Source: Gammaproteobacteria bacterium CG22_combo_CG10-13_8_21_14_all_40_8
GTDB taxonomy: Bacteria; Pseudomonadota; Gammaproteobacteria; Enterobacterales; GCA-002770795
DNA: 44,997 nt
Reading direction: 5' to 3'
Assembly (NCBI GenBank): GCA_002770795.1
Contig: PCTP01000174.1
Span: 4,615-49,611, forward strand
In this document: in pieces, positions 8,593-41,981 of the stretch
Position numbering within the stretch: the first letter of the stretch is position 1
Layout: every line of letters starts with the position of its first letter
Position numbers and translations under genes: made by a program
Notes under the pieces: generated by a model
The model's input: the letters and a program-made list of their open reading frames with translations, nothing else
Databases searched by the model: none
What the model was told of the DNA's origin: nothing

Positions 8593-9492
8593 CTATCTAA
8601 ATAGTACCTCTTGTAGCATTCTATCACAATGATAGTGCCACTCAGACAAAACAACCCCAAATGCTTGTTCAATTTTGTCAACACAAAGTTTCGAGTTTAA
8701 AGGGCGTGTTGCGGCGACTGGGTATGCACTTGAGGGAATGGGATGGATCTCTCGACATTGAATGGATACACCATTAGGGCCTTCTTTTGCTTTAGACAAA
8801 ATATACTCTGCGTAATCAAACCATGTTGTAGCTCCTTTGGCTACAAGATGGTAAATACCAGAAAGATCTAGGGGATCTGTATCTTTAGCTTGCGCAATTT
8901 GCCTTAAGCAAAGTGCACTTACATCGGCAATTAATTCTGCGCTTGTTGGCGCCCCTTGTTGATCGGCTACAATATTCAACTGTTCTCTTTCTGCAAATAA
9001 ACGTAACATGGATTTTGCAAAATTTGCACCTCTTGTGGCATACACCCAACTGGTTCTGAAAATAAGATGGTTACAACCTGAATCAATAATCGACCTTTCT
9101 CCAGCCAATTTGCTTTTGCCATAAATAGACAATGGATTCACTTCTTCGGTTTCCTTGTAGAAGCCTTCCTTATTACCATCAAAAACATAATCAGTGGAAT
9201 AATGAAGCAACCAAGCGCCTAGATTAAAAATTTCCTGTGCCATCACAGCTAAAGCCTCTGCATTAATGGCATAGGCATTGGCTTGATCAGTTTCCGCTTT
9301 ATCCACTGCGGTATAAGCAGCCGCATTGACTAACCAATCGGGTTTATGTTGACGGATAACATACCTTAAAGCGTCTGCATCAGATAAATTAAGTTGTGAG
9401 CGATCTAAGGAGATTAAAGTCCCCAATGGCGCAAGCGCACGTTGTAACTCCCAACCCACTTGACCATTTTTACCCAGTAGTAATATTTTCAT
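8593..9492 (-). CDS. rfbD: dTDP-4-dehydrorhamnose reductase
   Basis: MKILLLGKNGQVGWELQRALAPLG, NAAAYTAVDKAE, HYSTDYVFDG, YGKSKLAGE, IFRTSWVY and QQGAPTSAELIAD align along the full length with E. coli RfbD/RmlD from memory. Confidence 0.88.
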   Translation of the reverse strand: MKILLLGKNGQVGWELQRALAPLGTLISLDRSQLNLSDADALRYVIRQHKPDWLVNAAAYTAVDKAETDQANAYAINAEALAVMAQEIFNLGAWLLHYSTDYVFDGNKEGFYKETEEVNPLSIYGKSKLAGERSIIDSGCNHLIFRTSWVYATRGANFAKSMLRLFAEREQLNIVADQQGAPTSAELIADVSALCLRQIAQAKDTDPLDLSGIYHLVAKGATTWFDYAEYILSKAKEGPNGVSIQCREIHPIPSSAYPVAATRPLNSKLCVDKIEQAFGVVLSEWHYHCDRMLQEVLFR

Positions 9493-9507
9493 GAGGCTCC
9501 TTCAGTA

Positions 9508-10641
9508 TTAATTAAATATTGCTAATAAAGTATTAAACAATATGTCTTTGTCTTTTAATGCCATTTTGCTATGAAATGGGATGCCTAAACAGTTTCTATT
9601 GAGATCGTTGGTTACAGTCATTGCCGTCGCGCAAGAAATAGGAGAGATAGCGCTTTCAGAATAAATTGGCATTTTATGAACGGCTGGACAATACCATTTT
9701 CTCGTTTCAATTTTAGCTTCAATAAATTTTTCACAAACCAAATCCATGGACATAAATTGATCAAATTTAATCACATAGGTACTGGGAGCAAATTCAAAGC
9801 GATCATCAATAGCTTGTAGAGTGAGAGGTAATTGATACGAAAGAATAAAATGATTATAGTCTTTCCACATTTGGTGCTTTAAAGATTTGATCGCTTGCCA
9901 ACGTCGCATTTGTGCTAAACCAACCGCTGCATGATATTCACTCATTTTAGCATTGTATCCATCCACCAAAACTTGAAAGTTTTTTAAGCCAAAATTACTC
10001 ATAAGCCGACATTTTTCGATGAGATTTTCCTTGGCCGAAATAATGAGCCCCCCCTCTCCGATAGCAAAGTTTTTGGTGGCGTGAAAACTGAAGGTATAAA
10101 TACATTCAGTTCCAATAGATTGGTGCCCAAAAGCCGCAGCAGCATCAACTACAACAGGTAACGCAAACTTTAAGGAAAAACTATCCCATAATTGACTATC
10201 TACAGGACTGCCTAAGGCTGCCACAGTTAACACAGCATCTATTTTATGCTTAGGTAACAAAGCTTCAACAATTGATGGCGTAAGCTGCCAAGTTGCTACA
10301 TCCACATCAGCAAGCATAGGTTTTAATCCAGCTTCTATAATAGCAGAAACTGTAGCAGGAAAAGTAAAGGACGGAACTAAAATGGTGGATTGGGGTTTTA
10401 AATTTAGAGACTTGAGTGCCAAAACAATAGCAGAAGTGCCATTGGAACAGGTTGTAAGATTTTGTGATTCACAATCAAAGCTAGCAACGGATTGAATCAA
10501 TTGGCAAAGTTGTTGTTCGAATTGTAGAACTAAGGGACCATAATTTGAATACCAAAGATTATGATCTATCTGCTTTAACCAAGGGTAAAGCTCATCTGCA
10601 CTTGGCAAGTCAGGGATCAGCAACTTTAATGTCTGGTGCAT
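9508..10641 (-). CDS. DegT/DnrJ/EryC1/StrS-family PLP-dependent sugar aminotransferase
   Basis: Fold-type I sugar aminotransferase layout. NGTSAIVLALKSL, VPSFTFPATVSAI, and the PLP-lysine context FSFHATKNFAIGEGG. Confidence 0.85.
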   Translation of the reverse strand: MHQTLKLLIPDLPSADELYPWLKQIDHNLWYSNYGPLVLQFEQQLCQLIQSVASFDCESQNLTTCSNGTSAIVLALKSLNLKPQSTILVPSFTFPATVSAIIEAGLKPMLADVDVATWQLTPSIVEALLPKHKIDAVLTVAALGSPVDSQLWDSFSLKFALPVVVDAAAAFGHQSIGTECIYTFSFHATKNFAIGEGGLIISAKENLIEKCRLMSNFGLKNFQVLVDGYNAKMSEYHAAVGLAQMRRWQAIKSLKHQMWKDYNHFILSYQLPLTLQAIDDRFEFAPSTYVIKFDQFMSMDLVCEKFIEAKIETRKWYCPAVHKMPIYSESAISPISCATAMTVTNDLNRNCLGIPFHSKMALKDKDILFNTLLAIFN

Positions 10642-10704: not shown

Positions 10705-11439
10705 TCAAAACTTTCCTCGAATAAACAACCCAATAAACTGCAAAAGTCTTAACTGTCTTGAGATCCTTGTTGGTTGAACAACTAGTCGAAACAACCATTC
10801 TAAATGAATACGTTGCATCCATCGGGGCGCTCTTTTAACCTCATCAACAAAAACATCGTAACTCCCCCCGACACCTATATATAAGGTGTTCGGGTATTTT
10901 TCCCTACATTCAGCAATAAATTTTTCCTGTTTTGGCGATCCCATGGCAACACAAACAATTTGAGCCCGACTTTTAGTAATTTGTTCGATGATAAGTCCAT
11001 TATCATCGAAATACCCTGAGTGGGCACCCACAATATTAACATGATATTGCTGTTGTAATTTTATTTGTGTTAGGGCGTTCACTCTCTCTGAAGCCCCTAA
11101 TAGATACACAAAGGACTGATGCACACCTGCCTTCTGCATAAGGGACTCCCAAAGTTCACATCCTGGAATTCTTTTACCTGCCTTTCCTTTTCTACTCATT
11201 AACCACACAACGGGTATACCATCGGCAAAAGCCACTGTGGATGTAGAAATCAGTTGCTTGTATGCGGGATCCTGATAACAAGTGACCAGTTTTTCTGCAT
11301 TGATTGCCACAGCAAATCCTGTTTTGATCTTGCCACTTGTGTTGTAAAAAGAATCAGCTGCAGAATTCACTTCTAAAAAAGGTTGAATAGCTAAATCCGC
11401 AAGAGTAATTTTAGAGAGTTGTTTAACTGTGGTGTTCAT
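10705..11439 (-). CDS. WecG/TagA/CpsF-family glycosyltransferase (GT26), likely ManNAcA/ManNAc transferase
   Basis: Family-typical blocks ADGIPVVW, IPGCELW, VYLLGA, VCVAMGSPKQEKF, GVGGSYDVF, KRAPRWMQRIHLEWLFRLVVQPTR. Confidence 0.85.
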   Translation of the reverse strand: MNTTVKQLSKITLADLAIQPFLEVNSAADSFYNTSGKIKTGFAVAINAEKLVTCYQDPAYKQLISTSTVAFADGIPVVWLMSRKGKAGKRIPGCELWESLMQKAGVHQSFVYLLGASERVNALTQIKLQQQYHVNIVGAHSGYFDDNGLIIEQITKSRAQIVCVAMGSPKQEKFIAECREKYPNTLYIGVGGSYDVFVDEVKRAPRWMQRIHLEWLFRLVVQPTRISRQLRLLQFIGLFIRGKF

Positions 11440-12409
11440 GATACCAATCTCTAAAAGTGATAAATTGATTCGTTGTTATAGTCTCTTGTAAAAACAACTT
11501 TAACTGTGACAAAGAGCACTCACTAAATGCTTTGGGATGCCCCATAATAACCATGTGTTTGTGTTTTTGCTTCCAAGTATCATAGGCTTTCATTAACAAT
11601 TTCGACTTGTATCCATCAATAGAAATCACTGACATTGAGGGAATGCTGAGCAATTTAAGGATATTAGATAAGGGGGATTCAACCGCTTTTCCATCACCAA
11701 ATGATCGATGAGTTTGCTTGTTTATTAGTTTAGCAACGACCATTCGCCAATAGAACAAAGGGGAAACTTTCATGCTTGCAATAGGTAATTCTATAAAGTG
11801 CCCCCGATTTTTCGCGACCAAAGGATCATCATCAAAATGCCAATAATCCATTATCGGGGCGTTGCGAAAATCAAATTTCTGGCCAGGTGATTGTAGATAG
11901 CCACCAGGAAAAACGGAACTATCCATTTTAATACCCTGTTCGTATAAAATGTTAGATAAAATATCAAAAGGTTGTATACACCATCCACCAGCACGATAAG
12001 CAATGGGATGAATATTAAATTCTTTCACTAGAATTGTCTTATACTTCTCAACAATTTTTGCAATAGTTTCAGTGTCAAACTGTTGAAGGCGATATCTTGT
12101 ACTAGGTAATAATATTTCTCCATCACCTTCTTTGGCATCTTCCCAATGAGGATGTATGTGCAATTGAATATCATGCCCTGCAGCCAGAATTACTTGAAGT
12201 TGCAGAATAACCATTGATCTATCATCATGCAATGACGGCATATCTAAAGAATGAAAAAGATACCCTGCATCCACGAAAAAGGTGGCTTTAACACCAAAAT
12301 CATCTAACAGTGCCAGTAGTTTATTGGTAGGCTCGATCAAACACTTTTGAGCAGTTCCAATATTTCGCCCCAAGAAGAGTTCGTAATCTAAGGTTAATAA
12401 TATCTTCAC
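11423..12409 (-). CDS. Polysaccharide deacetylase-like protein (CE4-like)
   Basis: N-terminal LTLDYELFLG is the equivalent of the CE4 TFDD/DVED motif. GHDIQLHIHPH is a His-rich metal motif, and YRAGGW is the equivalent of the R-x-P-Y/F motif. The GTG start shares a GTGA 4-nt overlap with the upstream sulfotransferase stop. Confidence 0.55.
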   Translation of the reverse strand: MKILLTLDYELFLGRNIGTAQKCLIEPTNKLLALLDDFGVKATFFVDAGYLFHSLDMPSLHDDRSMVILQLQVILAAGHDIQLHIHPHWEDAKEGDGEILLPSTRYRLQQFDTETIAKIVEKYKTILVKEFNIHPIAYRAGGWCIQPFDILSNILYEQGIKMDSSVFPGGYLQSPGQKFDFRNAPIMDYWHFDDDPLVAKNRGHFIELPIASMKVSPLFYWRMVVAKLINKQTHRSFGDGKAVESPLSNILKLLSIPSMSVISIDGYKSKLLMKAYDTWKQKHKHMVIMGHPKAFSECSLSQLKLFLQETITTNQFITFRDWYHEHHS

Positions 12410-13266
12410 AGTTTATATCGATTTAGCAAGTTCAATGGGAAAGTTAAGAAATAACCTATCCATCGTTTGAAAAGTGGAAGTTCATCGCACCATCCATCAT
12501 GAGATTGAAACTGAATAGAAGCCTTTTTAGCCAAACGATTTCCGCCGATGATATGGCCTATGTCAAAAAATTGTTCTGTCTGAATTTTGGTTAAAATAGA
12601 GATACAATCCAGATCTGTAAAGTTAGCGATATTTTGAAATACAGATTTTGGATCATTTAACAAATCTTCATATTTTACTTTTAATACTTTATTTTTTAAG
12701 AGTGTTCTGGAAATTATTTCAGCAGTAAAATTCACTAGATTATAATAAATACAAGCACTCATTAATCCTCTTGATGTTTGCACATTCTTGGCAAAGGAAT
12801 GAATAACCCCTCTAGGATCACGAACTAAATAGATATATTTTACATCTAAATTATCACATTTATTTAAGGCCAGGGCCCTGCCTATATATTTAGATGAGTC
12901 GATCACTCTTTCTTGATCGCAATGTTGAAGGATCTCAGAAAATAATTCTTCATGAAAATTTTGGTAGCATGATGGTAATTTATATGCAAAAAAATATTTA
13001 AAAATATTTATATGCTTTTCTAGAGTTCTCGCACGCTCTTGTGTCTCTTGCTCCAAAGATTTTAAACAAGAAATTTGTGACCAACATATGCAATCCGAAA
13101 GTAAACTACCGCAGCTACATTGGCTTACAGCTAAATTTCCATGGTTTAGTTGGGTTAACTCCCCTACTTGAATGGCACTTTTAGCAGCTCCCAAGAATAC
13201 ACTTAACGCCGTGCTGCCACTACGTCCTGCGCCCATGATATAAAGAATTTTAGATTTTTTCTGCAT
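12406..13266 (-). CDS. Sulfotransferase (PAPS-dependent, Sulfotransfer_3-like)
   Basis: 5'-PSB loop [12 protein letters not shown]. 3'-PB motif [14 protein letters not shown]. Cys cluster [14 protein letters not shown] moved the start to the ATG at 13266 ([19 protein letters not shown]), because the track ORF extends 84 nt further into the upstream acetyltransferase gene. Confidence 0.8.
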
Positions 13267-13777
13267 GACGATACTTAATGACTTTTGCAGGGTTTCCAAC
13301 AACAACAGCCCAAGCGGGTACATTTTTTGTGACCACAGCTCCGGCTCCAATCACAGCATGATCTTCAACAATTATGCCAGGTAGAATAATCACATTCGCG
13401 CCTATCCAAACATCATTCATTATACGAGTCTCTTTTCTGCTCTTGCCTTGCTGTTGAATATACTGATGACAATCATCAAATTTATGATTTCTGGTATAGA
13501 TTTTCACATCTGGTCCCATTATCACATAGTCCCCGATAGAAACATTGGCATGAATCAAACAATTTTGCCCCAATTCAGAATGGTTACCTATACGAATATT
13601 AGGAGAAATATCTGCATTATATTTCACTCGAATATTGTCTCCACAATTCACAACAAACTGTTTAACCAGAAGTCTACGAATACGGTGAAAGCCTAAAGAA
13701 TAAGGTCGATAATCTTCTGGCGTAAACCTGAAAAAGGCGATGTATAAAAAATAAGCCAGCTTTCTATAAAGACTCAT
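13250..13777 (-). CDS. Hexapeptide-repeat (left-handed beta-helix) O-acetyltransferase, WcaF/maltose acetyltransferase-like
   Basis: Hexapeptide repeats ([31 protein letters not shown] ... [45 protein letters not shown]). Confidence 0.85.
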
Positions 13778-14822
13778 TGGTACCTGCCATTTCTGTATAA
13801 ATAGCCATTAATTTATCACAAACCCTATCTAATGAATAATCAGTGTTAGATTGTATACATCTAACACTCATCTGTTGATAGTCTTCCTGAGATAGAAAAT
13901 GGGCTTTTACTAGCTGTTCCACTAAAGACTCTGTATTGATTTTTTCTAATAAAAATCCGTTAGATCCATCCTGAACTTGCATTTTTGGCCCAACCAAAGG
14001 GGTAGTAATTACAGGTATTCCACAATACATGGCTTCCGTAATCACCAATCCAAATGCTTCCTTGCGAGTAGGCAATACTAAATATCGACTTTTCCTGACA
14101 TAATTGGCAATAGTGGACTGTTCGGCGTCTTCGATAATGGTTACTTTATCTGGATGTGACATGGCCTGAATAGCGCACAACTCAGTCCCCGAACCGATAA
14201 AACAAAACGAAGGATATAACCCTGATTTTGTACCTAACAATTCTATAGCCTCTAGTAACATATCTAAACCTTTGGCCTTATAGAAGGAGCCTACAAAAAC
14301 AAAATCATACAACTTTTCTTCATTTTTTGGGAAAAAGATACTTCTATCAATTCCAGCAGGTATAACAGAACTCACTTTTCTATGATAAACATTTTCAAAT
14401 TCGTCAGCAATTCCAGTACCTACCGATAAAATCTGATCCACATAAACTAATCCCTTTTTCGTCAAATACCTGAATAATGTATTCTTGTAGGAAAAAGTGA
14501 CATCGTTTCCGTGTAATGTCATTAATACATGACTACCCCGTAGACGACTTTTCAATAATAAAATTAATAGAATATTAGGAAATAAAAAATGAAAATGTAC
14601 AACCTCAAACTTTATTTTTAGTTTTTGACGTAAATTGAGAAAATAGCTAATATATTTTATAAGACTTCCAATTTTTCCTGTGTTTTTTCTTTGCAAGAAA
14701 CATTGATAAAACTCGATATCTGGCCAGTTTTTTTTGAAAAAATTTAGCTGATTAACAACAAATATACCCGCATATTTTTTATGTTCTGAAGGCGCATTAT
14801 TGGATGCTATGAGTATTTTCAT
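13764..14822 (-). CDS. Glycosyltransferase family 4 (GT-B, retaining)
   Basis: C-terminal E-x7-E region [25 protein letters not shown]-terminal MKILIASN...GIFV. ATGA overlap with the upstream gene stop. Confidence 0.85.
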
Positions 14823-15772
14823 TGATTAAAACTCAATCTTCTTAAAATTGCATCTAATGGATTTTTTAATCTTGATAAGTTCAAAATTAATGCCAAAGGC
14901 ATTTTCAAAAAATACCATAATATTTTAAACCAATATAAAACCACCCAACCACCTATAGGCTTCTCTTTATAACCAGCCTTGTTTAAGAAATCAGATAAGG
15001 TTTTTTGGATCCAATACACATCAGAGCAGGGTAATTCTGCCATCCATTTTTCTGAGTTATTAGCATTAATGTGAGTATAGTTGATATCACCTAGAGTACA
15101 TTTCAAATAAGCGGACAATTCATTAAGAACCAGCTTAGGCTGTTGGGTCAACCTTTCATATTGAATAATGAAACAATGCTCTCCCTTACTTGTATTGGCA
15201 ATTTCAAAAGATCTAGCCCAAAGTTTGGCCATAAGAATCGGGTTATAATTTAGCCAAAGCCTCAAAGCTTCCCAATAACGCTTTTTCCTAAGATAATTTT
15301 TATATTTCTTCTTTTGGCTTAAAATACAATCTCTTGGGTCCCTTAACAAAAATACAAACTTAAACCGATCAGATAAGGTTAAAAATTCATCGATATAATA
15401 AATATTTCTAGGTGTACTGTCCAAGCAGTGGCTGTATTGACCTCTTATTAGCTGCAAAATTGATAAATAAAGCTGTGCGCCTTGGGTTATCTCACCATTA
15501 TTTATGCTGTTTTTCAATTGAGCTAAAAGACTTTCTCTATAATCATTTTCTTGAAACAATCCTTCTCCATAGGCTAACTTCATCATTTGTTGTTGAGCCA
15601 TTTTATTGAGTGTTTTTGGGTCTATCCTTGAGGTATCTTTGATATTCCAGATATTTTCCACAAATTGTAATTCTGGTGTATATTGAGCCAAATTTGCCTG
15701 ATGTAATATTTTGTTTAAGAGCTTAGTACCGCTCCTGGCATAGCCTGTAATCATGATAATAGCTGTATTCAC
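14819..15772 (-). CDS. Sulfotransferase (PAPS-dependent)
   Basis: 5'-PSB MITGYARSGTKLL. 3'-PB FVFLLRDPRDCILS. Hydrophobic/amphipathic C-terminus (GGWVVLYWFKILWYFLKMPLALIL). The start is placed at the GTG at 15772, which forms a GTGA overlap with the upstream stop as at other junctions in this operon. The track's TTG at 15805 and the ATG at 15754 are alternatives. Confidence 0.8.
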   Translation of the reverse strand: MNTAIIMITGYARSGTKLLNKILHQANLAQYTPELQFVENIWNIKDTSRIDPKTLNKMAQQQMMKLAYGEGLFQENDYRESLLAQLKNSINNGEITQGAQLYLSILQLIRGQYSHCLDSTPRNIYYIDEFLTLSDRFKFVFLLRDPRDCILSQKKKYKNYLRKKRYWEALRLWLNYNPILMAKLWARSFEIANTSKGEHCFIIQYERLTQQPKLVLNELSAYLKCTLGDINYTHINANNSEKWMAELPCSDVYWIQKTLSDFLNKAGYKEKPIGGWVVLYWFKILWYFLKMPLALILNLSRLKNPLDAILRRLSFNQ

Positions 15773-16779
15773 TTTGCAACGCCTCTCAGAGGATAATCGC
15801 GGCAAAGTGATTGATATAACTTAAGGCAATGATTTTCAACGAATTTAATTTGTTCGGGTGACAATTCATACTTCCATTTGCCTATATTCTTAACATCTAT
15901 GGGTTTCTGCGTATTCCTATGATGGTGGTATTTTTCTACGTCCCCTAGATTTTCTTGATCCAACCAAAACTTTAACATAGACTCTTGAAAATCAACGCCT
16001 AAATAGTCGCAAACGCTTTGCATTGTTGATTTAGGTTGTCTAATCAAATCCTCATAATGAATCACTAAAAAGCATTCTTTCCCCAAATTCTTTTTATTTT
16101 TTTCTATGGTGCCATGCGCTTTTAGCCAAAACCACACAATATAATCCGCTTCATTCATCGACTTTTTTGAAGCAAGTCCTGATTTTATATAAGATGCAAA
16201 AACTGCTCTGGGATCTCGGATTAAATGGATATATTTAGCCTTTGGAAAAAGCGCTTGGATATGATCTATAAATTGCGAATTTTTTGGTGTCTTGTCTCCC
16301 CATATCATCGCATCCTGAGGGATAAATTGTTGCGATTTTTCTACGCGATGCAGGCCATAGTTCAGGTATATCATTTCGATGATGTTAGCCAAACTTTGCT
16401 GTTTTTCGGGAAGTGCTTGGCAACTTTGTAAGGTTTTCTCTAGAGAAATATTCCAAGTACTAAATTCAGGATGCTTTTCAAATCCGTTAATTACCATTGA
16501 AGTTAATTGGTTCCAAGGTAAATATGCCTTACGATAAAACTTTCTGATTATTTTTGGAAGAACATAAGATTCTGGAGGAATAACAATCTGAGGATCTTTT
16601 GTTAACATAGTCCGCAACAAGGTACTTCCCGAACGCCCACATCCCAAAATAAAAAAGGGAGTTAAACTCTCATTACTCGATAAAGAATACCTTTTATCAA
16701 AAAAGTGGACGTGAGACTGAATTCTTAGATACCATCGAATCCATTTGAAACCAGGAGACAATAAATAACCTAATTTCAC
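15769..16779 (-). CDS. Sulfotransferase (PAPS-dependent)
   Basis: 5'-PSB FFILGCGRSGSTLLRTML. 3'-PB YIHLIRDPRAVFASY. GTG start in a GTGA overlap with the upstream stop. Confidence 0.85.
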   Translation of the reverse strand: MKLGYLLSPGFKWIRWYLRIQSHVHFFDKRYSLSSNESLTPFFILGCGRSGSTLLRTMLTKDPQIVIPPESYVLPKIIRKFYRKAYLPWNQLTSMVINGFEKHPEFSTWNISLEKTLQSCQALPEKQQSLANIIEMIYLNYGLHRVEKSQQFIPQDAMIWGDKTPKNSQFIDHIQALFPKAKYIHLIRDPRAVFASYIKSGLASKKSMNEADYIVWFWLKAHGTIEKNKKNLGKECFLVIHYEDLIRQPKSTMQSVCDYLGVDFQESMLKFWLDQENLGDVEKYHHHRNTQKPIDVKNIGKWKYELSPEQIKFVENHCLKLYQSLCRDYPLRGVAK

Positions 16780-17777: not shown

Positions 17778-17976
17778 TTTAGTTAATTAAAGCCTTTAAG
17801 CCAGCAGTCATCATATTTGAAATATAAGTATTGAAATAAATTCAAACTTATCGCGGATAGAGATATTGAATCATATCCTAAATTGGTTAATTTCTCAGTA
17901 TAAGCTTACACAAAAGCCATAATCAGGAAAAATATGCTAATATCCATGCAAATTAAACTCACATTATCAACCTCAC

Positions 17977-20173: not shown

Positions 20174-20260
20174 ATTACCGCATAGGCATCTATACTTTGT
20201 GAAATTTTGCTATACTCCTGATCTTGTCTGTCAAAACTCTTTAATTAACTAGTATCCCTT

Positions 20261-25959: not shown

Positions 25960-25972
25960 AATGATTTTTCCT

Positions 25973-30850: not shown

Positions 30851-31306
30851 TTAGTATATATTTTCCAGTAAACTATACACATCTTCTTCTATCGTTCTGA
30901 TCACTCTAGCAGGACTTCCAGCAACAATAGAGTTATCGGGCACATCATGTAAAACAACAGAGTTTGCACCGATAATGACATTATTTCCAACACGAATATC
31001 TCCGAGTATCCGTGAACCAGCTGAGATATAAACATTATTTGCGATAGTGGGTACACCATGAGGAGATAGTTTTCTTCCAATGGTAACATTTTGACCGATG
31101 ATCACCTTATCACCAATAATCGCTTTGCTATGGATAACCACACCAATTCCACCATAAGCAAATTTGCTATCTTTCCCAATTTTGGTTGTATAAGGAACAA
31201 CTGAATTATAGAAGAGGAAAATTAGCCCTTTAATAATTTTAGGTAGCAAAGGTATGCCTAACTCATATAATTTATTTGCTATTCTATATAATACTATTGC
31301 ATTCAT
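30851..31306 (-). CDS. Serine-acetyltransferase-like hexapeptide O-acetyltransferase
   Basis: PLLPKIIKGLIFLFYNSVV is a CysE-like helix. It is followed by hexapeptide repeats (IGDKVIIGQNVTIG ... VYISAGSRILGDIRVGNNVIIGANSVVLHDVPDNSIVAGSPARVI). Confidence 0.8.
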   Translation of the reverse strand: MNAIVLYRIANKLYELGIPLLPKIIKGLIFLFYNSVVPYTTKIGKDSKFAYGGIGVVIHSKAIIGDKVIIGQNVTIGRKLSPHGVPTIANNVYISAGSRILGDIRVGNNVIIGANSVVLHDVPDNSIVAGSPARVIRTIEEDVYSLLENIY

Positions 31307-31617
31307 AACCAGACCTGTACAACCCAGAGAGCTTGTCGATAATGATATATTTTTTGATTAAATCCTAGAAGCCTGTCCGAGAACAGACTGAACTACTGCG
31401 GCCAATGTTGATTGGCCAGCTTTCCCGATGAATTTCGTTACATACGACTGCATGGATGCAGAGCAACGCAGGAGCAGTTGCCGAGAATGACTATTCACCT
31501 CAATCCAGCGAAAAATCTGACTCAAACGGGCTTTGATTACCACCAATTATAAGAAAATACAGGAAAGCGGTACTATTATTACATAAAAATATATCCACTG
31601 CATGTACCAAAATATGA

Positions 31618-34353: not shown

Positions 34354-35631
34354 TCAAAACCAAATTCCTTTGGTATCGATACACCTTTTACCCTTTAACA
34401 CTTCGGGATCAATTTTTTTAAATTCGTCATGCTCAACTAACAGCAAAATAACATCCGCTAAATCTATAGCCGTATTTAAATCCACAATTTCAAATGAGAA
34501 TTTATGATGTTCAATTTTTAAATTGGGTTCAACAGAGATAAGCTTACAAGCAAGCTCTTGATGTAATATTTCAGTAATTTTTAAAGCGGGGCTTTCTCTA
34601 ATATCATCAATATTGGCCTTAAATGATAAGCCCAAGCAAGCCAAAGTCAAATCTTGGATATTTTTATGCGGGTTATCTGTACAAACATCTAAAAGAACAG
34701 ATTTAACTTTATCCATCACCCAATTAGGTTTACTGTCATTGACTAATCTAGCTTGATGGATAAGTTTCGCTTGAGCAGGGTTTTTTGACACAATGAACCA
34801 TGGATCAACGGCGATACAATGCCCCCCTACTCCAGGACCAGGTTGTAAAATATTAACCCTTGGATGTCTATTAGCTAGCGATATAAGTTCCCAAACATCA
34901 ATCCCAAGATCATCACAAATAATTGACAACTCATTAGCGAAAGCAATACCTACATCACGAGATGCATTCTCAGTTAATTTTGCCATCTCTGCTGTTCTTA
35001 CATTTGTAATGACGCATTCTCCTTCAACAAAAATCCGATACAACTCTAACGCTTTATGAGAACAAGCTGGTGTAATGCCACCAATAACACGATCATTTTC
35101 TCGCAACTCTCTCATAACTTGTCCAGGCAGTACCCTTTCAGGACAATGTGCAATGTAAACATCTACATTATCCCGACCTTGCTCGGCAAATACCAAGTCT
35201 GGCCGAGCTGCTTGTAGCCATAAAGCCATCTGTTCTGTTGCCCCTACTGGAGATGTCGATTCCAGTACCACAAGATTTCCTTTCTTTAAAACAGGTGCAA
35301 TCGCTTTTGCTGCCGCTTCAATGTAACTCAAATCAGGTTGAGGGATTTCTTCCTGATTTTTTACTGGAAAAAAAGGCGTTGGAACAGCGATTAGAAACGC
35401 ATCAGCACATTCAGGAACTGTGGTTGCACGCAGATAGCCACTTTGTACTGATCTCAGCACATAGTTATCTAACTCAGGTTCAATAATGTGAATTTCCCCA
35501 CGATTAATGGTATCTACAGTCGACTGGTTCACATCAACTCCAATCACTTTTATTTGTTTTGATGCAAATGCTGCAGCAGTGGGTAATCCAATATAGCCGA
35601 GTCCAACAACAGAAATAGTTTCAAATGACAT
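34354..35631 (-). CDS. wecC: UDP-N-acetyl-D-mannosamine dehydrogenase
   Basis: MSFETISVVGLGYIGLPTAAAFASKQIKVIGVDVNQSTVDTINRGEIHIIEPELD is near-identical in pattern to E. coli WecC. Catalytic GVGGHCI. Confidence 0.9.
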   Translation of the reverse strand: MSFETISVVGLGYIGLPTAAAFASKQIKVIGVDVNQSTVDTINRGEIHIIEPELDNYVLRSVQSGYLRATTVPECADAFLIAVPTPFFPVKNQEEIPQPDLSYIEAAAKAIAPVLKKGNLVVLESTSPVGATEQMALWLQAARPDLVFAEQGRDNVDVYIAHCPERVLPGQVMRELRENDRVIGGITPACSHKALELYRIFVEGECVITNVRTAEMAKLTENASRDVGIAFANELSIICDDLGIDVWELISLANRHPRVNILQPGPGVGGHCIAVDPWFIVSKNPAQAKLIHQARLVNDSKPNWVMDKVKSVLLDVCTDNPHKNIQDLTLACLGLSFKANIDDIRESPALKITEILHQELACKLISVEPNLKIEHHKFSFEIVDLNTAIDLADVILLLVEHDEFKKIDPEVLKGKRCIDTKGIWF

Positions 35632-35649: not shown

Positions 35650-36777
35650 TCAGGATGCAATAATAGCGTTAAGTATTTTTTGACTAGCGGTCCCATCTCC
35701 ATATGGATTATGGGCTTTACTCATTTTTTGATACAGCTGTTCATTTTCTAATAATTCAATAAGTGCTTCGGATATTTTATTAGAATTTGTACCAACTAAT
35801 CTTACAGTTCCAGCTTCAACAGCTTCCGGTCTTTCAGTCGTATCTCTCATCACTAAAACCGGTTTTCCTAGAGTAGGCGCCTCTTCTTGAATACCGCCAG
35901 AATCGGTTAATATAATGTATGATCGACTCATTAAATAGACAAATGGTAAATAGTCTAAGGGATTAATCAAAAAGATATTACTTTTGTTGGATAATAAACG
36001 TTTTACAGGTTCTTGAACATTTGGATTAAGATGAACAGGGTAAACAATTTGTAATTGAGGGTATTTATCTGCAATCTTGGCTAGTGCACAGCATATACTT
36101 TCAAAACCTTCACCAAAACTCTCTCTTCTATGCCCCGTCACTAAAATTATTTTTTCCTCATCATTTAAGAAATCAAACTGCTCACTACATTCTTTTGCTA
36201 ACGCTTTATTATTTTTAATTTTATTGACAACTGTAATCAAAGCATCTGTGACAGTATTACCCGTTATATAAATTTTATCGGTAGTTACACCTTCGCGTTT
36301 TAAATTATCGGCAGCTTTCTCAGTGGGAGCAAAATGATATTCAGTCAAAACGCTTGTCAATTTTCTATTGGCTTCTTCAGGCCAAGGAGAATACAAATCT
36401 CCTGTTCTAAGTCCAGCTTCAACATGACCAACTTTGATCTGTTCATAAAATGCAGCCAGGGCAGCTGCAAATGTTGTGGTGGTATCACCATGAACCAACA
36501 CAATTTCTGGAGCCAATTCTCTAAGTATAGGGCGTAACCCATTTAATATACTGGTAGTAATACTGCTCAAAGACTGTCCTGGTTTCATTATATCTAAATC
36601 AAAATCAGGTGTTATTTCAAATAAGCTCAGTACTTGATCCAACATTTGACGGTGTTGAGCAGTTACACAGATCTTTACATCAAATTCTTTTCTCAACGAA
36701 AGACACTTCACTAAGGGAGCCATTTTTATCGCTTCAGGACGAGTCCCAAACACGAATAGAATTTTCTTTTTTAACAT
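35650..36777 (-). CDS. wecB: UDP-N-acetylglucosamine 2-epimerase (non-hydrolysing)
   Basis: [78 protein letters not shown]. The start is placed at the ATG at 36777 ([15 protein letters not shown]) by analogy with the E. coli WecB N-terminus. The track's TTG at 36834 and the ATG at 36792 are alternatives. Confidence 0.92.
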
Positions 36778-36885
36778 ATTTTCAACTTTCATATTTACAA
36801 TTTTTGAGGAAATTGATTCATGAACAGGAACCAAACAAGAAAGCCTTGTAGAAATTCTCCAGATGCTGCAAGTTCAACTCGGTGT

Positions 36886-38214
36886 TTATGCATTGATAAC
36901 ATTTGTAGATATATTATGTTGAAACCTTCCTCTGGTATCAATGATCAATTTGGCATTAGATAAAATTAGATCATAATTAAATTTATCGTGATCTGTTGCC
37001 AGTAAAACAACATCAAATGATTTTATCACAGTTGATGTTAAAGCAATGCTGGTTAGGTTGAAATGATGTTGTTTCATTTTTGGGAAAACTGGAACATGGG
37101 GATCTGAATATTCAAGAATGGCGCCTTTGCTCTGTAGAATCTCCATTAATTTTACTGAGGGTGATTCTCTCATATCATCGACATTTTTTTTATAAGCAAT
37201 CCCTAATAAGAGTATTCGACTTCCTTTCACCGACAAACCCAGGTCATTTAAAGCATTGACTAATTTCTCAATAACCCAATGGGGCATTGAAGAATTCACT
37301 TCACCAGCTAATTCGATAAAACGGGTATGTACTCCATATTCTCTTGCCTTCCAAGTAAGATAGAATGGATCAATTGGGATACAGTGTCCTCCTAATCCTG
37401 GGCCGGGGTAATACGCAGTAAATCCGAATGGCTTGGTTGCTGCGGCTCTGATCACTTCATGAATATCAATTCCCATTTTATCAGCAACAACTTTCATCTC
37501 ATTCACTAACCCTATGTTCACAGAACGATGAATATTTTCTAATAGTTTGGTCATTTCAGCTGTTTTTGTAGAACTTACACTAACAACTTTATCTATGACA
37601 GCTTCATAAAGAGCGACTCCAACCGCTGTACACTCGGATGTATAACCCCCACAAATTTTGGGTATTGTTTGGGTAGAGAACAAATTATTTCCAGGGTCTT
37701 CTCTCTCAGGAGAATAGATCAGAAAAAAATCCTCTCCAACCTTGAAACCCATAGACTCGATTCTGGGCAATAATTCTTCGTCTGTCGTCCCAGGATAAGT
37801 GGTGCTTTCCAGTGATAATACTTGCCCCTTAACGAGATAAGGTAGCATTGCATCCATAGTGTCAAGCACATGACTTAGATCAGGTTCTCGAAACTTACTT
37901 AAAGGCGTTGGTACACATAAAATTAAAGCATCACATTGAGTGATATTTGAAAAATCTGCTGTTGGAAAGAAGCCAAAATTGATGGCATTATTTATCGAGC
38001 TTGAAGAAATATGCTCTATATAACTTTCTCCCCTTTTCAGTTTGTCGATTTTGAATGTATCAATATCAAATCCTATGACACTGAATCCAACCGCAATATA
38101 TCTCAGCATCAATGGTAAACCGACATAACCCAAACCAACAATTCCAATAGTTGCAGATTTAGAGATCAATTTGTTTTTTAGCTCATGAGCTATCGCTTGA
38201 TTCATTTTAAGCAC
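36886..38214 (-). CDS. Nucleotide-sugar 6-dehydrogenase, WbpA/WbpO/TviB-like (UDP-HexNAc to UDP-HexNAc uronic acid)
   Basis: [17 protein letters not shown]...[20 protein letters not shown], catalytic [13 protein letters not shown]-terminal [15 protein letters not shown]. Confidence 0.85.
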
Positions 38215-38327: not shown

Positions 38328-39290
38328 TTATTTTTGACCAACTTTCTTGCCAAACAAATACATGCTTAAAAGGCTAAAAACACCACCAATAATAGTTCCT
38401 AAAATAACAAGAATCACTCTTTTGGGTTTACTTTTTATTTCTGGCGTTAATGCTGGATCAACAGTTTTTAACACATATTCATCTCTAACATTCGCTAACA
38501 TCATCGTCTTGGATTGCTCTTGTATAAGATCAAAAAAAACTTGTTTCATTTCTGTTACAGTTGTTGTCTGTATTTGTTTGGTTAAAAAATCTATACTTTG
38601 CTTTGATTCTGAAATATCATCATTTCTAATGGTGTTGTTAAGATCCTCAATTATCCAAGTCAGCCAATCATGGGCAGTTTGAGGGGAAAAAAACTCAAAG
38701 CTTACTTCAACAAATCCTGACTTTTTATCCTGTGATGAATTTAATCTTTCTTTTAAGACCTTATATGCCTCCAGATCGGATGGCTTGGGAGTCAATGGCG
38801 GTTTGACGTCTCTCACCCATTGTTTTTTAGAGGTGTTATAAATATCATCATCAATAATGAGTTTATTTGTATCAGGATCCCATTTTTTTGTTGCCATTAA
38901 TGGAATTAATAGATCATGATTTTTTATAAAGTTTATTAAAAAAATTCGCGATTCCAAAGTTTCCAGTGCCAGAGCTGTTTTATCGACCCCGCTCGCACCT
39001 ACATTAATCCCAGCCATACTTGCAAGCCCGCCAAATCGACTGACTAAATTAGCAAGTTTACCTCCTCCCGCTTGATCATTAGAAGTGGTTGGCGCCAACA
39101 ACACTTCAGACTTATATTGGTCAGGTAACTGTAAAGAAATAATTATGCTCGCGACAATGAATATTCCAGTAATGGATATGACCATAATTTTATTTAACCA
39201 CAGCATTTGCCATAGCTCTTTCAAACTGATCACTTCATTCTGCTTTGGGAATTCTGTAGAACTCTGCAGTTCTGATTGCTGTACATTCAT
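38328..39290 (-). CDS. Wzz-like polysaccharide co-polymerase (chain-length determinant), no kinase domain
   Basis: N-terminal ISLKELWQMLWLNKIMVISITGIFIVASIIISLQLPDQYKSEVLLAP (Wzz domain plus TM1). Roughly 230 aa periplasmic region. C-terminal TM RVILVILGTIIGGVFSLLSMYLF. Confidence 0.8.
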   Translation of the reverse strand: MNVQQSELQSSTEFPKQNEVISLKELWQMLWLNKIMVISITGIFIVASIIISLQLPDQYKSEVLLAPTTSNDQAGGGKLANLVSRFGGLASMAGINVGASGVDKTALALETLESRIFLINFIKNHDLLIPLMATKKWDPDTNKLIIDDDIYNTSKKQWVRDVKPPLTPKPSDLEAYKVLKERLNSSQDKKSGFVEVSFEFFSPQTAHDWLTWIIEDLNNTIRNDDISESKQSIDFLTKQIQTTTVTEMKQVFFDLIQEQSKTMMLANVRDEYVLKTVDPALTPEIKSKPKRVILVILGTIIGGVFSLLSMYLFGKKVGQK

Positions 39291-39323
39291 AAAGTATTAG
39301 CCATTCACTCTTGTTTATTAAGC

Positions 39324-41981
39324 CTATAATCTACCCAATGTAGCTAATGCGACAACATTTTGGAATATAATTTGTGTCACTTCTGACCAAAGTGTAATTG
39401 GCTTTGTATAGTTAGTATTTAATGGCACAATAATGGTATCACCAGGTTCAAGTTGCGTACTTGAATTTGCAAACCAGACGCTTCTATTCTGAGGCATTCT
39501 CACAGCACCATTGGCTTTGATGATAAAGACTCTGTCTTCGTCTGCTCTTGAAGTTAAACCTCCACTAAGCTGTAGATAGCTTTCCATATTCAGTTTTTTA
39601 TCAAATACATGTGCTGTTGGATGTTGGACTTGCCCCATAACAGAGACTGTTTGCGCACTGGGTGGTATTGCGATTTCATCACCATCTTTTAGAACTAAAT
39701 TGTTTTCAGAATTTTTCTCGCCAACAAGCACCGAAGGAAGATCTATAACCAACCGACCTAATACCTGTGTAGAATCTAGTTTTTCAACCAAATCCAGAGA
39801 ATCATCTTTTTTTATTACCTTTTTATCATCAGTTGCTTCACTAAGTGATGCTGCTGCAAGTTCATTTTTTAAACGCTCTTGCATTTCTTTTAACAATTCT
39901 GCTTCTCGTTCTTTTAACTCTTTACGTAGAAAAATAGCGCCCTTCGCATAGGCCATATTGGTTAATCCACCCGCGCGAACCAGCACATCTTTTAATGTTT
40001 CACCTTGGCTTATCACATAGGTTCCTGGAAACTTGACCTCTCCCTTCACAATCACTTGTTTAACTTCATTCCACTCTGGTTTAATTCTTACCGTCACTAC
40101 ATCTCTAGATAATAATCTTAATTTTTCAGTGCTTTCCCCAGATATCATGTCTTTCATAGTAACGGTAATATGTTCTATATTCATTGGTTCATCAGTGTTG
40201 ATTTTACGCCGAGTTAATTCGGCGGCCACAGTATAAGCCGAATCTTTAAAACCACCCGCAGCTTTTATCAAACTTTTTATGGTGTTTTTGTCGGTAATTG
40301 GATACAGACCTGGAAAGTTGACTTCTCCCTGAATAGTATGCACTAACAGAGGAGAGTTTAATGAAGCTTGTTTTTTTAACTGTTCTATAATCGGTTTTAA
40401 AAGTGTCACTCGAGAGAAATCTTTTTCTTCTTCCTCACTTTCATTTTCGTTAATTTGAGGGACATATTTTTCTTGGTATTTAATTTTTTCTGCACGCTCT
40501 AACAACAATTGTTTTTGTTTATTTTTATTTTTAAAATCAAACTTTCCCAAATTAAACTCTTCAGCATATTTCACTGAATCTTTGACTGAAAAAACTAAGA
40601 TTTCGTCTTGAGCTTGTAATTGAATATCAAATTCATCCTTGTTTTTATGTGATAGTGCATCGGCCAAAGAGAATTGGACAAGGTTGATATCATTTTGAAT
40701 ATTTATCTTTCGTACCACTAAAGAGTATCCCAAGTCAGCATCAGGCATCAGATCTCGGTGTAAATCGCGGATCACATCAGAAATTCTTATTCCTTCCTGC
40801 CAATGATAGGCACCTTCACGGGTAACAGCGCCAATAAGTTTAACAGCGCCATCAATGAAATCAGATATTTTTCCCATGACTAGCTCATCGCCATTCCTTA
40901 AAGTCAGTTTTCTATCCTCTGGATGAGCTAAATTAAGGTTGAACGCTTCTCTGACATTGTTCGCATTAATTCGGTTTAGCAATGCCGAACTTTTATTTGA
41001 TTGAGCCTTTGCGTCACCAGCCATAAAGAGTAAATCGGCAATATTTTCATCTTTCTTGATCTCAAATATCGCAGGTCTGTTGACTTCACCCATAGCGGTC
41101 ACTCTGGCACCCGCACTGGGAATAAATACAACATCGCCTGCTTGAAGTCTTAAATCTTGATTTGTCTCCCCTTTTAGCAAAAGATCATAAAGATCCAGAG
41201 TTGCAATTAATTTACCTCGCCGCTTCAGCTGGATATTTCTTAATGAACCTGTTTTTTTAATGCCACCACTCACAAAAATAGCGTTAGTGATAGTGGTTAA
41301 TGAACTCACTTGATAAGAGCCAGGCTTAAAAGCATCTCCCAATACTAAGATGCGCATTGAGCGTAACTCACCTAAAGAAATAGACACCTCAACCCCGAGG
41401 ATTTGGCTTTGAATTTTTTTGGTGATTAGCTGTTTAACTTCCTCATATTTCATACCAGAAACAGCAATAGGCCCAATTTCAGGTAATTGAATTTTGCCAT
41501 CTCGATAAACAGATAAATTATAATTTTGGTTTTCTTTCCCATAAAGTTGCACGACCAATTCATCACCTGGGCCTAAAATATATTCCGAAGGCACTGGAAT
41601 ATCAGTGACAGGGGCAAAAGTTGTAGGTTCACCAGCAAAAAGATCATAACCAAAATACTGAGGCTCATCATTTTTTTCTGGAAACTGGGCCAGTATTTCA
41701 TCCAGATTCAATGGTTTTTCTGTTTCAGGGCGAGGATTCATCAAGTCAGGAACTTCTTGAAAATCTTTCTGCGGTCCACTAATGCCCTTTAAGTCACCAA
41801 CATCATATCCCAATTGCTTGGCTATCTTTTTTTGTTGTTGGGGCGATAGTTTTTTAAATTGTTCAATTTGCTGTGACGTTGGAGTCAAAGCATAGCTAGA
41901 TTGTATTTGCAGAATACTCATGAACAAGCTGGCGCAAATCAGCACCATATTTTTTGACAGCATCTTAGATAATTTCATCAT
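39324..41981 (-). CDS. Outer-membrane polysaccharide export protein (OPX; Poly_export domain plus multiple SLBB repeats), Wza/KpsD-like but 885 aa
   Basis: Signal peptide MMKLSKMLSKNMVLICASLFMSILQIQSSYA. PES motif region YILGPGDELVVQLYG...DGKIQLPEIGPIAVSGMKYEEV. Repeated SLBB-like modules (…GSYQVSSLTTITNAIFVSGGIKKTGSLRNIQLKR…, …GLYPITDKNTIKSLIKAAGG…, …GTYVISQGETLKDVLVRAGG…). Hydrophobic C-terminal helix LWSEVTQIIFQNVVALATLGRL. Confidence 0.85.
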   Translation of the reverse strand: MMKLSKMLSKNMVLICASLFMSILQIQSSYALTPTSQQIEQFKKLSPQQQKKIAKQLGYDVGDLKGISGPQKDFQEVPDLMNPRPETEKPLNLDEILAQFPEKNDEPQYFGYDLFAGEPTTFAPVTDIPVPSEYILGPGDELVVQLYGKENQNYNLSVYRDGKIQLPEIGPIAVSGMKYEEVKQLITKKIQSQILGVEVSISLGELRSMRILVLGDAFKPGSYQVSSLTTITNAIFVSGGIKKTGSLRNIQLKRRGKLIATLDLYDLLLKGETNQDLRLQAGDVVFIPSAGARVTAMGEVNRPAIFEIKKDENIADLLFMAGDAKAQSNKSSALLNRINANNVREAFNLNLAHPEDRKLTLRNGDELVMGKISDFIDGAVKLIGAVTREGAYHWQEGIRISDVIRDLHRDLMPDADLGYSLVVRKINIQNDINLVQFSLADALSHKNKDEFDIQLQAQDEILVFSVKDSVKYAEEFNLGKFDFKNKNKQKQLLLERAEKIKYQEKYVPQINENESEEEEKDFSRVTLLKPIIEQLKKQASLNSPLLVHTIQGEVNFPGLYPITDKNTIKSLIKAAGGFKDSAYTVAAELTRRKINTDEPMNIEHITVTMKDMISGESTEKLRLLSRDVVTVRIKPEWNEVKQVIVKGEVKFPGTYVISQGETLKDVLVRAGGLTNMAYAKGAIFLRKELKEREAELLKEMQERLKNELAAASLSEATDDKKVIKKDDSLDLVEKLDSTQVLGRLVIDLPSVLVGEKNSENNLVLKDGDEIAIPPSAQTVSVMGQVQHPTAHVFDKKLNMESYLQLSGGLTSRADEDRVFIIKANGAVRMPQNRSVWFANSSTQLEPGDTIIVPLNTNYTKPITLWSEVTQIIFQNVVALATLGRL

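Follow-up and report, generated by a model that had tools for sequence, protein, structure and literature searches.

Whether a bacterial locus with five sulfotransferase-like genes directs the synthesis of a sulfated polymer, and how closely this polymer would resemble an animal glycosaminoglycan (GAG), is the question raised by a region of about 33 kb in Gammaproteobacteria bacterium CG22_combo_CG10-13_8_21_14_all_40_8 (GenBank assembly GCA_002770795.1), a metagenome-assembled genome (MAG) whose name pattern, CG22_combo_CG10-13_8_21_14, is presumably that of the Crystal Geyser groundwater series. The window analyzed, to which all coordinates refer, is 44,997 nucleotides long (contig PCTP01000174.1, positions 4,615 to 49,611) and has a G+C content of about 36%. 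It contains the polysaccharide locus at 8593-41981, from the RmlD gene (8593) to the gene for the OPX exporter (41981). Genetically defined pathways for bacterial sulfated polysaccharides are few, and the characterized ones feature one to three sulfotransferases.

An earlier note, made by inspection of the DNA, had described the region as a Wzx/Wzy polysaccharide locus with five genes for sulfotransferases of the type dependent on 3'-phosphoadenosine 5'-phosphosulfate (PAPS). This description was confirmed: the five genes lie in packed, overlapping operons together with glycosyltransferase and flippase genes, and every gene class listed in the note was found in its place by using Pfam and NCBIfam profiles, scored against curated cutoffs. 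The product is predicted, with a probability of about 0.75, to be a sulfated surface polysaccharide of Wzx/Wzy-dependent synthesis, be it a capsule, an exopolysaccharide (EPS) or an O-antigen-like polymer. Proteins from the window match GenBank entries PIP80027.1, PIP80032.1 and PIP80033.1 exactly, all three labelled "hypothetical protein", and the same genes are also found on several ENA and Logan metagenome contigs.

Five sulfotransferases of distinct subfamilies

The search with hidden Markov models (HMMs) placed four of the five proteins above cutoff: ST1 (12406-13266, minus strand; PF13469, 52 bits), ST2 (14819-15772, minus strand; PF13469, 65 bits), ST3 (15769-16779, minus strand; PF13469, 130 bits) and ST5 (19334-20173, plus strand; PF00685, 87 bits). 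ST4 (16776-17777, minus strand; PIP80033.1) is divergent, and its 16.5 bits with PF00685 fall under the 22-bit cutoff. The PAPS-binding elements, i.e. the 5'-phosphosulfate-binding (5'-PSB) and 3'-phosphate-binding (3'-PB) motifs, were taken as defined in PMC11625862. A script detected a 5'-PSB-like [KR]-x-[GA]-[ST] motif followed, in the correct order, by an R-x7-S 3'-PB motif in all five proteins, the second lying about 85-140 residues past the first. The two motifs read GAGRSGST and RDPRGVIHS in ST1, GYARSGTK and RDPRDCILS in ST2, GYHKTATT and REQTSMIES in ST4; GAQKCGTT is also among the five 5'-PSB motifs.

Structure prediction, run for ST4, returned a sulfotransferase alpha/beta fold. Its sequence finds no match in PDB, and its family is small, with about 21 clusters out of 5.8 billion proteins; in the alignment of this family GYHKT[GA][TS]T and R-x7-S are invariant or nearly so (K25, R123 and S131), and E85 is invariant. 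The AlphaFold (AF2) model has a predicted local distance difference test (pLDDT) score of 83.5, and all 49 Foldseek matches in PDB at E<=1e-3 have the PAPS-sulfotransferase fold, led by 3rnl, the N-sulfotransferase (NST) domain of the N-deacetylase/N-sulfotransferase (NDST) NDST1 and heparan sulfate 3-O-sulfotransferases (3-OSTs), with a target-normalised TM-score of up to 0.72. All five ORFs are thus of PAPS type, four by Pfam and ST4 by predicted fold and motifs; the Lys/Ser/Arg constellation is kept throughout, and no other fold emerged.

The relationships of the single enzymes differ. ST5, which is 3-OST/NST-like, matches 3rnl, 3-OST-1 and the NDST1 NST domain in PDB (E 1e-24 to 1e-17), and in the sequence alignment the Glu of its 'KETQFF' stretch falls on 'ENEVHFF' of 3-OST-1; this Glu, like E85 of ST4, is a candidate catalytic base. 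ST3 is similar to the CurM/OLS sulfotransferases and to TPST (PDB 4gox/4gbm and TPST matches). The best PDB matches of ST1 are also OLS/CurM sulfotransferases; it is ST5 and ST4, not ST1, that resemble NST. Pairwise identity among the five does not exceed 27%, and they are mostly undetectable to one another by BLAST. A recent duplication as their common origin is ruled out by these identities, and by their sequences the five are distinct subfamilies. They probably differ in position specificity, and may be a source of soluble bacterial carbohydrate sulfotransferases. The statement of the earlier note that the polymer is "sulfated at several distinct positions" is overstated, as it was drawn from the divergence of the five enzymes only. 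An iterated HMM search of the window found no sixth sulfotransferase.

The polyketide (CurM/OLS) and protein-tyrosine sulfotransferases that are nearest to ST1 and ST3 in PDB suggest a different use for these enzymes. Some or all of them could act off the repeat unit, with lipid A or core, glycolipids, peptides or small molecules as substrates, or some could be inactive paralogues, the polymer then being lightly sulfated. The substrate of a sulfotransferase is not readable from its sequence, and ST3 is missing from the syntenic locus described below. Yet the PAPS-binding residues are kept in all five proteins, four of the genes are in reading frames that overlap with glycosyltransferase genes and the fifth, ST5, overlaps the flippase gene. 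The same arrangement, moreover, recurs in polysaccharide loci of several phyla. Such off-polymer roles are therefore regarded as improbable, and sulfation of the polysaccharide is preferred.

Related loci and PAPS supply

A scan of GTDB genomes with the ST4 family alignment yielded relatives of the locus; the same type of scan with ST3 alone gave no relative. A homologue of ST4 (P0002) is located on the Enterobacterales MAG contig JBFFIY010000038.1, where ten genes, ST5-Wzx1-ST4-ST2-GT4a-AT1-ST1-deacetylase-WecG-DegT1, are found in the same order as in the window, at 48-72% identity. Directly past this block lie genes for a PAPS_reduct protein (CysD), APS kinase (CysC), a CysN-type GTPase and a member of the CitMHS/Na-sulfate symporter family. 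ST3 has no counterpart there, ST2 coming directly after ST4; it is either an insertion here or a deletion in JBFFIY010000038.1. The slot following DegT1 is occupied by cysD in that locus and by RmlD in the window.

Similar associations were found elsewhere. A Kangiella MAG locus carries three sulfotransferases, two sulfotransferase-deacetylase pairs and a CysD-like gene. In the cultured Kangiella sediminilitoris (CP012418.1) an 18861-bp stretch, at about 1,585,507-1,604,367, encodes, in order, WecB, a ManNAc-type dehydrogenase, a sulfotransferase, Wzx, a C5-epim_C protein, a polymerase, GT4, ST1, deacetylase, WecG, a formyltransferase, a second deacetylase, CysD, CysN, a transporter and CysC, for a total of two sulfotransferases and two CE4 deacetylases; its C5-epim_C protein contains the D-glucuronyl C5-epimerase C-terminal domain (PF06662, 144 bits). 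A related module on a 4.0-Mb contig is flanked by CysNC on one side and by a sulfate symporter on the opposite side. The core module is also present in cultured Fodinibius sediminis (FXTH01000019.1), Gangjinia marincola (BAAAFG010000015.1) and Bizionia gelidisalsuginis, besides K. sediminilitoris.

Because genes for PAPS synthesis and sulfate uptake stand beside the same sulfotransferase module in relatives, real sulfation of a polymer is supported, and these related loci constitute the strongest evidence for it. Finding PAPS genes together with sulfotransferases within one polysaccharide cluster has been proposed as a hallmark of sulfated polysaccharide synthesis (PMC11641403). A sulfated capsule of Kangiella japonica, a different species, is cited in PMC11766843 and PMC12472108; literature searches found no functional study of the K. 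sediminilitoris locus or of the Ilyomonas limi locus described below.

How unusual five sulfotransferases are was evaluated by counting, with iterated HMMs, the sulfotransferase ORFs that lie no more than 10 kb from ST4-family genes across 51 GTDB genomes, a sample biased by being centred on one sulfotransferase family. One sulfotransferase was found in 34 loci, two in 9, three in 5, four in 2 and five in a single locus, that of the cultured Ilyomonas limi 17mud1-8. By Pfam, the latter contains six sulfotransferase-domain genes in 10 kb (PF00685, PF13469 and one PF03567), so that uniqueness of a locus with five is ruled out. These six genes (Chitinophagaceae, NZ_SZQL01000009.1) adjoin a kinase-type polysaccharide co-polymerase (PCP), an ABC transporter, GT4 and GT2 genes. 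Five is at the high end, unusual, yet not unique. Among described systems, synechan has two sulfotransferases, called unprecedented in bacterial clusters by its authors (PMC8205485), three are spread through the 80 genes of the Vibrio KMM 8419 region (PMC11641403) and Pontiella has three in the genome (PMC7356697). The earlier claim that one or two per locus is the norm thus stands for characterized loci and fails for public genomes, which hold uncharacterized loci with two to six, the six being those of I. limi.

Precursor, transfer and assembly genes

The set required for Wzx/Wzy assembly is complete, comprising an initiating transferase, Wzx, Wzy and a PCP and OPX pair. The repeat unit would be initiated by a small PglC-like polyprenyl-phosphate sugar-phosphate transferase (25973-26602, minus strand; PF02397, 215 bits). 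A Wzx-type flippase (Wzx1; 17977-19341, plus strand; PF01943, PF13440, MurJ) is part of the sulfotransferase module and is 50% identical to its counterpart in JBFFIY010000038.1. The Wzy-like polymerase (32877-34124, minus strand; PF04932, 39.7 bits, cutoff 31.7) and a second Wzx-like membrane protein (Wzx2; 31618-32811, minus strand; PF01943, 31.7 bits, cutoff 28.2) score just modestly over cutoff. The Wzz-like PCP (38328-39290, minus strand; PF02706, 37 bits, weak GNVR) is devoid of a kinase domain, and no tyrosine kinase domain was found with the PCP/OPX pair. The OPX exporter (39324-41981, minus strand) has PF02563 and four SLBB domains (PF10531 x4). The possibility that Wzx2 is a truncated pseudogene is ruled out by its complete 397-aa multi-helix ORF; the 311-bp non-coding gap that separates it from the AT3 acetyltransferase gene (31307-31617), which is the longest intergenic stretch of the right-hand operon, contains no Wzx-like continuation.

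Precursor genes point to amino sugars and N-acetylhexosaminuronic acids (HexNAcA). WecC, UDP-ManNAc dehydrogenase (34354-35631, minus strand; NF008286, 684 bits, cutoff 459), and WecB, UDP-GlcNAc 2-epimerase (35650-36834, minus strand; TIGR00236, 538 bits), are both above their equivalog cutoffs. A second nucleotide-sugar dehydrogenase of HexNAc type (36886-38214, minus strand) passes TIGR03026 and is below cutoff for the equivalog models; its closest PDB relative is a UDP-ManNAc dehydrogenase of Cap5O type, so that the WbpA/TviB-like label given to it in the earlier note is corrected here to the broader HexNAc type. The Pgl-type set includes a PglF-like membrane-anchored UDP-GlcNAc 4,6-dehydratase (20261-22162, plus strand; PF02719, 420 bits), a PglE-like aminotransferase (24148-25326, minus strand; PF01041, 309 bits) and a PglD/NeuD-family N-acetyltransferase (25327-25986, minus strand; PF17836 and hexapeptide repeats; TIGR03570, 219 bits, cutoff 161). 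DegT1, a DegT/DnrJ-type sugar aminotransferase (9508-10641, minus strand; PF01041, 223 bits), lies in the conserved sulfotransferase module and is 53% identical to its counterpart in JBFFIY010000038.1. It is followed by RmlD, a dTDP-4-dehydrorhamnose reductase (8593-9492, minus strand; PF04321; NCBIfam NF007440, 346 bits, cutoff 308).

Four glycosyltransferases were identified. Three are GT4 enzymes encoded on the minus strand: GT4a (13764-14822; PF00534, 92 bits), GT4b (26569-27798; PF00534, PF13439) and GT4c (29727-30848; PF00534, 86 bits). The fourth is of the WecG/TagA family (10705-11439, minus strand; PF03808, 174 bits); it passes the TIGR00696 superfamily model and reaches 252 bits with the WecG equivalog, below the cutoff of 323, and is likely a transferase of ManNAc or of N-acetylmannosaminuronic acid (ManNAcA).

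The remaining genes may serve tailoring. Two hexapeptide-repeat acetyltransferases, which bring the number of acetyltransferases to three with the PglD-like one, are both partial matches in NCBIfam and are encoded on the minus strand: AT1, of the WcaF/maltose O-acetyltransferase type (13250-13777; PF00132; 72% identity in JBFFIY010000038.1), and AT3, CysE/WcaB-like (30851-31306; PF00132). An AsnB-like glutamine amidotransferase (22176-24008, minus strand; PF00733, GATase_7; TIGR01536, 370 bits) likely amidates a uronate carboxyl group. The heparinase II/III-like protein (27802-29622, minus strand; PF07940, 81 bits; PF16889, 40 bits) has no PDB sequence match and is a candidate uronate C5-epimerase or lyase. 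A heparinase II/III domain also adjoins Wzy-ST1-deacetylase in the Gangjinia and Bizionia loci, and the C5-epim_C protein occupies a comparable place in that of K. sediminilitoris; the literature searches yielded no functional work on heparinase II/III-like proteins that are encoded in biosynthetic loci.

Limits and transcriptional organization of the locus

The limits of the locus are sound. At the left a tRNA-Gly(GCC) gene (8378-8452, minus strand; ARAGORN), external to the pathway, marks the boundary, and a DUF2868/DUF3482 GTPase pair is also found on this side; to the right of the OPX gene, MlaC and GntR genes are unrelated. The stretch between 319 and 7831 encodes a hybrid histidine kinase, a periplasmic solute-binding protein, a response-regulator-PAS-GGDEF diguanylate cyclase and the DUF2868/DUF3482 pair just mentioned; regulation of the neighboring polysaccharide locus may possibly be linked to c-di-GMP. 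The distance between the tRNA gene and the end of the locus is 140 bp, and in the syntenic MAG locus an rve transposase borders the module. Both features are compatible with horizontal movement of the sulfotransferase module.

Genes are arranged in three transcription blocks: minus strand from 17777 to 8593, plus strand from 17977 to 22162 and minus strand from 41981 to 22176. Within the first, genes from ST4 through the WecG-family gene overlap by 4-17 nt, and therefore form one operon. No exact copy of the ops/JUMPstart core GGCGGTAG was found, and its one-mismatch matches (13, with 8.4 expected) are at chance level; promoter and terminator scans over 7.8-24.2 kb gave results at or below shuffle expectation.

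This layout, with its three transcription directions and a divergent gap at 17778-17976, could result from a mosaic origin, in which a mobile sulfotransferase block that includes a flippase of its own (about 8.6-20.2 kb) was joined to a complete Wzx/Wzy locus (22.2-42.0 kb). Two glycans, or alternative repeats, might then be made, in which case the five sulfotransferases would not all act on one polymer. In keeping with this, there are two Wzx-like genes, the left block abuts a tRNA gene, and it is kept as a unit, beside the rve transposase, in JBFFIY010000038.1, where neither Wzy nor an initiating transferase is present in the 18 kb seen. The module, however, lacks an initiating transferase, a polymerase and an exporter of its own and must depend on neighboring genes; WecB and WecC, suppliers of its WecG-family transferase, sit in the other half, and PglF, on which the right-half enzymes PglE/D/C depend, belongs to the same transcription block as Wzx1 and ST5. 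Each half thus needs the other to function, and separate products appear unlikely. The reading retained is that of one locus devoted to a sulfated polysaccharide.

A deacetylase coupled to ST1

The gene that follows ST1, at 11423-12409 on the minus strand, had been called deacetylase-like on the basis of a weak, sub-threshold Pfam match (PF01522, 18.7 bits). The call is now backed by a predicted CE4/NodB fold: the AF2 model has a pLDDT of 94.4, and its top Foldseek matches are 3rxz, HP0310 and ArnD (8t0j), the NDST1 deacetylase following at rank 36. A PDB sequence search, with the single sequence or a profile, gave nothing useful. Residues D8, E10, H84, H86 and H88 are invariant in the family, and the first beta-strand begins at residue 2, hence the protein has no signal peptide. 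The family counts over 1800 clusters, often named polysaccharide deacetylase in the source databases, as compared to 135 for the ST1 family. One homologue (P0120, 570 aa) is fused to a WecG/TagA domain (PF01522 and PF03808), which supports a functional link between the deacetylase and WecG steps.

Gene neighbors were counted in 80 metagenome loci carrying the closest homologues of the deacetylase. A WecG-family gene is downstream of it in 41 loci. The slot directly upstream is taken by an ST1-type sulfotransferase in 28, with a 1-4 nt overlap in 22 of these; in the window, the stop of ST1 and the start of the deacetylase overlap by 4 nt, and the two genes are thus translationally coupled. The same slot holds a GNAT Acetyltransf_6/FemAB-like gene in 16 loci and an AAC(3)-type N-acetyltransferase in 12, and in Winogradskyella forsetii it holds a formyltransferase. 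Seen from the other side, the deacetylase comes next in all six ST1 homologues with visible context. The alternative occupants all come from families known for acting on amino groups. Most simply read, the deacetylase would expose an amine and the enzyme encoded upstream would derivatise it anew; here this enzyme is ST1, and the group added would be sulfate.

ST1 is in this respect a candidate N-sulfotransferase, and together with the CE4 deacetylase it may form a two-protein analogue of NDST: a lipid-linked N-acetylhexosamine (HexNAc) or HexNAcA residue, probably that processed by the WecG-family transferase, would be deacetylated and then N-sulfated to a sulfamate, the other four enzymes being O-sulfotransferases. 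The proposal refines the preferred explanation and is compatible with it. The deacetylase fold fits, as it matches both the NDST1 deacetylase domain and ArnD, which deformylates a lipid-linked amino sugar; in addition, dye-based assays have suggested mostly N-sulfated exopolymers in Pontiella (PMC7356697). Several points speak against it. The case is built on gene neighborhoods alone, and the 80 loci were picked by similarity to this deacetylase, which biases the frequencies. ST1 is a PF13469 protein of the NodH/CurM type, not specifically related to NST domains, and no fusion of sulfotransferase and deacetylase was present among the top 120 matches of either family. A formyltransferase beside a CE4 enzyme may indicate protection and deprotection in the style of ArnA/ArnD, in which case the amine would stay free and ST1 would be an O-sulfotransferase. 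Finally, searches of a paper library found neither an N-sulfated sugar reported in a structurally solved bacterial polysaccharide nor any report of native bacterial polysaccharide N-sulfotransferases. On balance N-sulfation by ST1 is put forward tentatively.

The ST1-deacetylase-WecG cassette is spread over Gammaproteobacteria, Bacteroidota and Balneolaceae, cultured strains included. Taken with the heparinase II/III-like or C5-epimerase-like genes and the O-sulfotransferases, it might represent a prokaryotic, cytoplasmic and lipid-linked version of heparan-sulfate-style tailoring, with a sulfamido sugar perhaps derived from ManNAcA; this wider proposal is possible, though doubtful.

Proposed pathway

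The identities of the sugars, the order of the steps, the number and position of the sulfates and the cytoplasmic timing given here are those that we infer from the gene content. The repeat unit would be assembled on undecaprenyl phosphate at the cytoplasmic face of the membrane. PglF/E/D-like enzymes would provide a bacillosamine-type 2,4-diamino-2,4,6-trideoxyhexose, with which the PglC-like transferase would initiate the unit; WecB and WecC would supply UDP-ManNAcA to the WecG-family transferase, and the second dehydrogenase another HexNAc uronic acid, possibly amidated in the repeat. The three GT4 enzymes would finish a repeat of about five sugars, a size predicted because there are one initiating transferase and four glycosyltransferases. 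Decoration would precede flipping: the CE4 deacetylase would take off an N-acetyl group, the five PAPS-dependent sulfotransferases would add up to five sulfates, and the two O-acetyltransferase-like enzymes and the AsnB-like amidotransferase would add further groups. Wzx would then flip the unit, Wzy polymerise it, the Wzz-like PCP set chain length and OPX export the chain.

The earlier note had placed sulfation on the lipid-linked unit in the cytoplasm. This is a reasonable proposal, because PAPS is a cytoplasmic metabolite and a search for long hydrophobic segments found none in ST1 to ST4 and, in ST5, only an N-terminal anchor (hydrophobic window at residues 7-30).

Several observations weigh against this explanation. 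The source is an uncultured MAG, and the product is predicted here from genes alone. The pair formed by OPX and a PCP devoid of kinase does not decide between a capsule and an O-antigen. The two Wzx genes may denote a mosaic region that serves several glycans; rmlABC partners for RmlD are absent from the window; and ST3, for which the nearest syntenic locus has no counterpart, may have been added late and is possibly not essential. The number of sulfotransferases need not equal that of sulfate groups. As the earlier note had stated, cysD/N/C genes are absent from the window, to which this search was confined.

Significance

Sulfated bacterial capsules, and multi-sulfotransferase loci in public data, were already known. 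The locus and its relatives define a compact, transferable module, in which a flippase, a glycosyltransferase, an acetyltransferase and a deacetylase are combined with up to five distinct sulfotransferases, and which sister genomes wire straight to PAPS synthesis and sulfate uptake. If N-deacetylation and N-sulfation by the deacetylase and ST1 proved true, they would be the first bacterial route to sulfamido sugars, and would bear on microbial heparin production, where the poor bacterial expression of animal NDST is a recognised bottleneck (PMC13353177, PMC11069525). Cultured carriers of the core module make the idea directly testable.

Comparison with known systems

The closest characterized parallel is the xss cluster for synechan of Synechocystis sp. 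PCC 6803 (PMC8205485). It likewise directs a Wzx/Wzy-type sulfated extracellular polysaccharide, with sulfotransferases amid glycosyltransferases, flippase, polymerase and PCP, and its published model also has the lipid-linked unit modified at the cytoplasmic face. The xss cluster, however, has two sulfotransferases and neutral sugars (Rha, Man, Gal, Glc), in contrast to five, with amino sugars and HexNAc uronic acids predicted, in the present locus. It has no deacetylase, amidotransferase or heparinase-like gene, whereas here the OPX gene is inside the cluster and a conserved ST1-deacetylase-WecG core is present. Regulators of the XssQ/XssR/XssS type were not found: the locus contains no STAND or DNA-binding activator, and its flanks hold the unrelated hybrid kinase, GGDEF response regulator and GntR.

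The capsule regions of Vibrio sp. KMM 8419 and Cobetia marina KMM 1449 (PMC11641403, PMC11766843) combine gammaproteobacterial sulfotransferases with cysD/N/C, the pairing seen in the relatives of this locus. They differ in that export is by a Kps ABC transporter, the polymers are rhamnose-based, and one to three sulfotransferases are dispersed over 70-80 genes; here the locus is Wzy-dependent and compact, with no PAPS genes in the window.

Among uncharacterized loci, that of Ilyomonas limi is similar in having several PF00685/PF13469 genes, but there are six, with an ABC transporter and a kinase-type PCP, and no deacetylase module. The Kangiella sediminilitoris locus shares the GT4-ST1-deacetylase-WecG core, WecB, the ManNAc-type dehydrogenase and Wzx, and differs in that it has two sulfotransferases, a gene resembling C5-epimerases and PAPS genes of its own.

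Tailoring of rhizobial Nod factors offers a partial precedent. The CE4 deacetylase NodB frees an amine, which the N-acyltransferase NodA re-derivatises, while sulfation is performed by the PF13469-type NodH, with PAPS from the cysDN-like nodPQ genes. The product in that system is a soluble chito-oligosaccharide, which NodH sulfates on the oxygen at C6. The present genes belong instead to a Wzx/Wzy polymer pathway, and a sulfotransferase holds the slot that N-acyltransferases hold in sister loci.

The animal heparan sulfate machinery (NDST, Glce, 2-, 6- and 3-O-sulfotransferases) shares more at the level of single enzymes. ST5 and ST4 are closest, by sequence or fold, to 3-OST and the NDST1 NST domain, a deacetylase is coupled to a sulfotransferase, sugars of hexosamine and uronic acid type are predicted, and the related K. 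sediminilitoris has a gene with a D-glucuronyl C5-epimerase C-terminal domain. Sulfated hexosamine and uronic acid constituents, as in a GAG, might be provided by the precursor genes for ManNAcA and another HexNAcA together with the five sulfotransferases. The differences concern architecture: deacetylase and sulfotransferase are separate proteins, with ST1 of PF13469 type; a cytoplasmic lipid-linked oligosaccharide would be modified, as opposed to the finished chain in the Golgi; and the polymer would be a Wzy-polymerised repeat of about five sugars, not one of GlcA-GlcNAc disaccharides. No locus gene matched a processive GAG synthase family of the KfiA/C, KfoC or HAS type. The term "glycosaminoglycan-like", used in the earlier note, is thus a loose analogy. 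Because there is no synthase and no disaccharide repeat is predicted, the locus does not, strictly speaking, count as one for a glycosaminoglycan; what it has in common with heparan sulfate tailoring are the types of enzyme.

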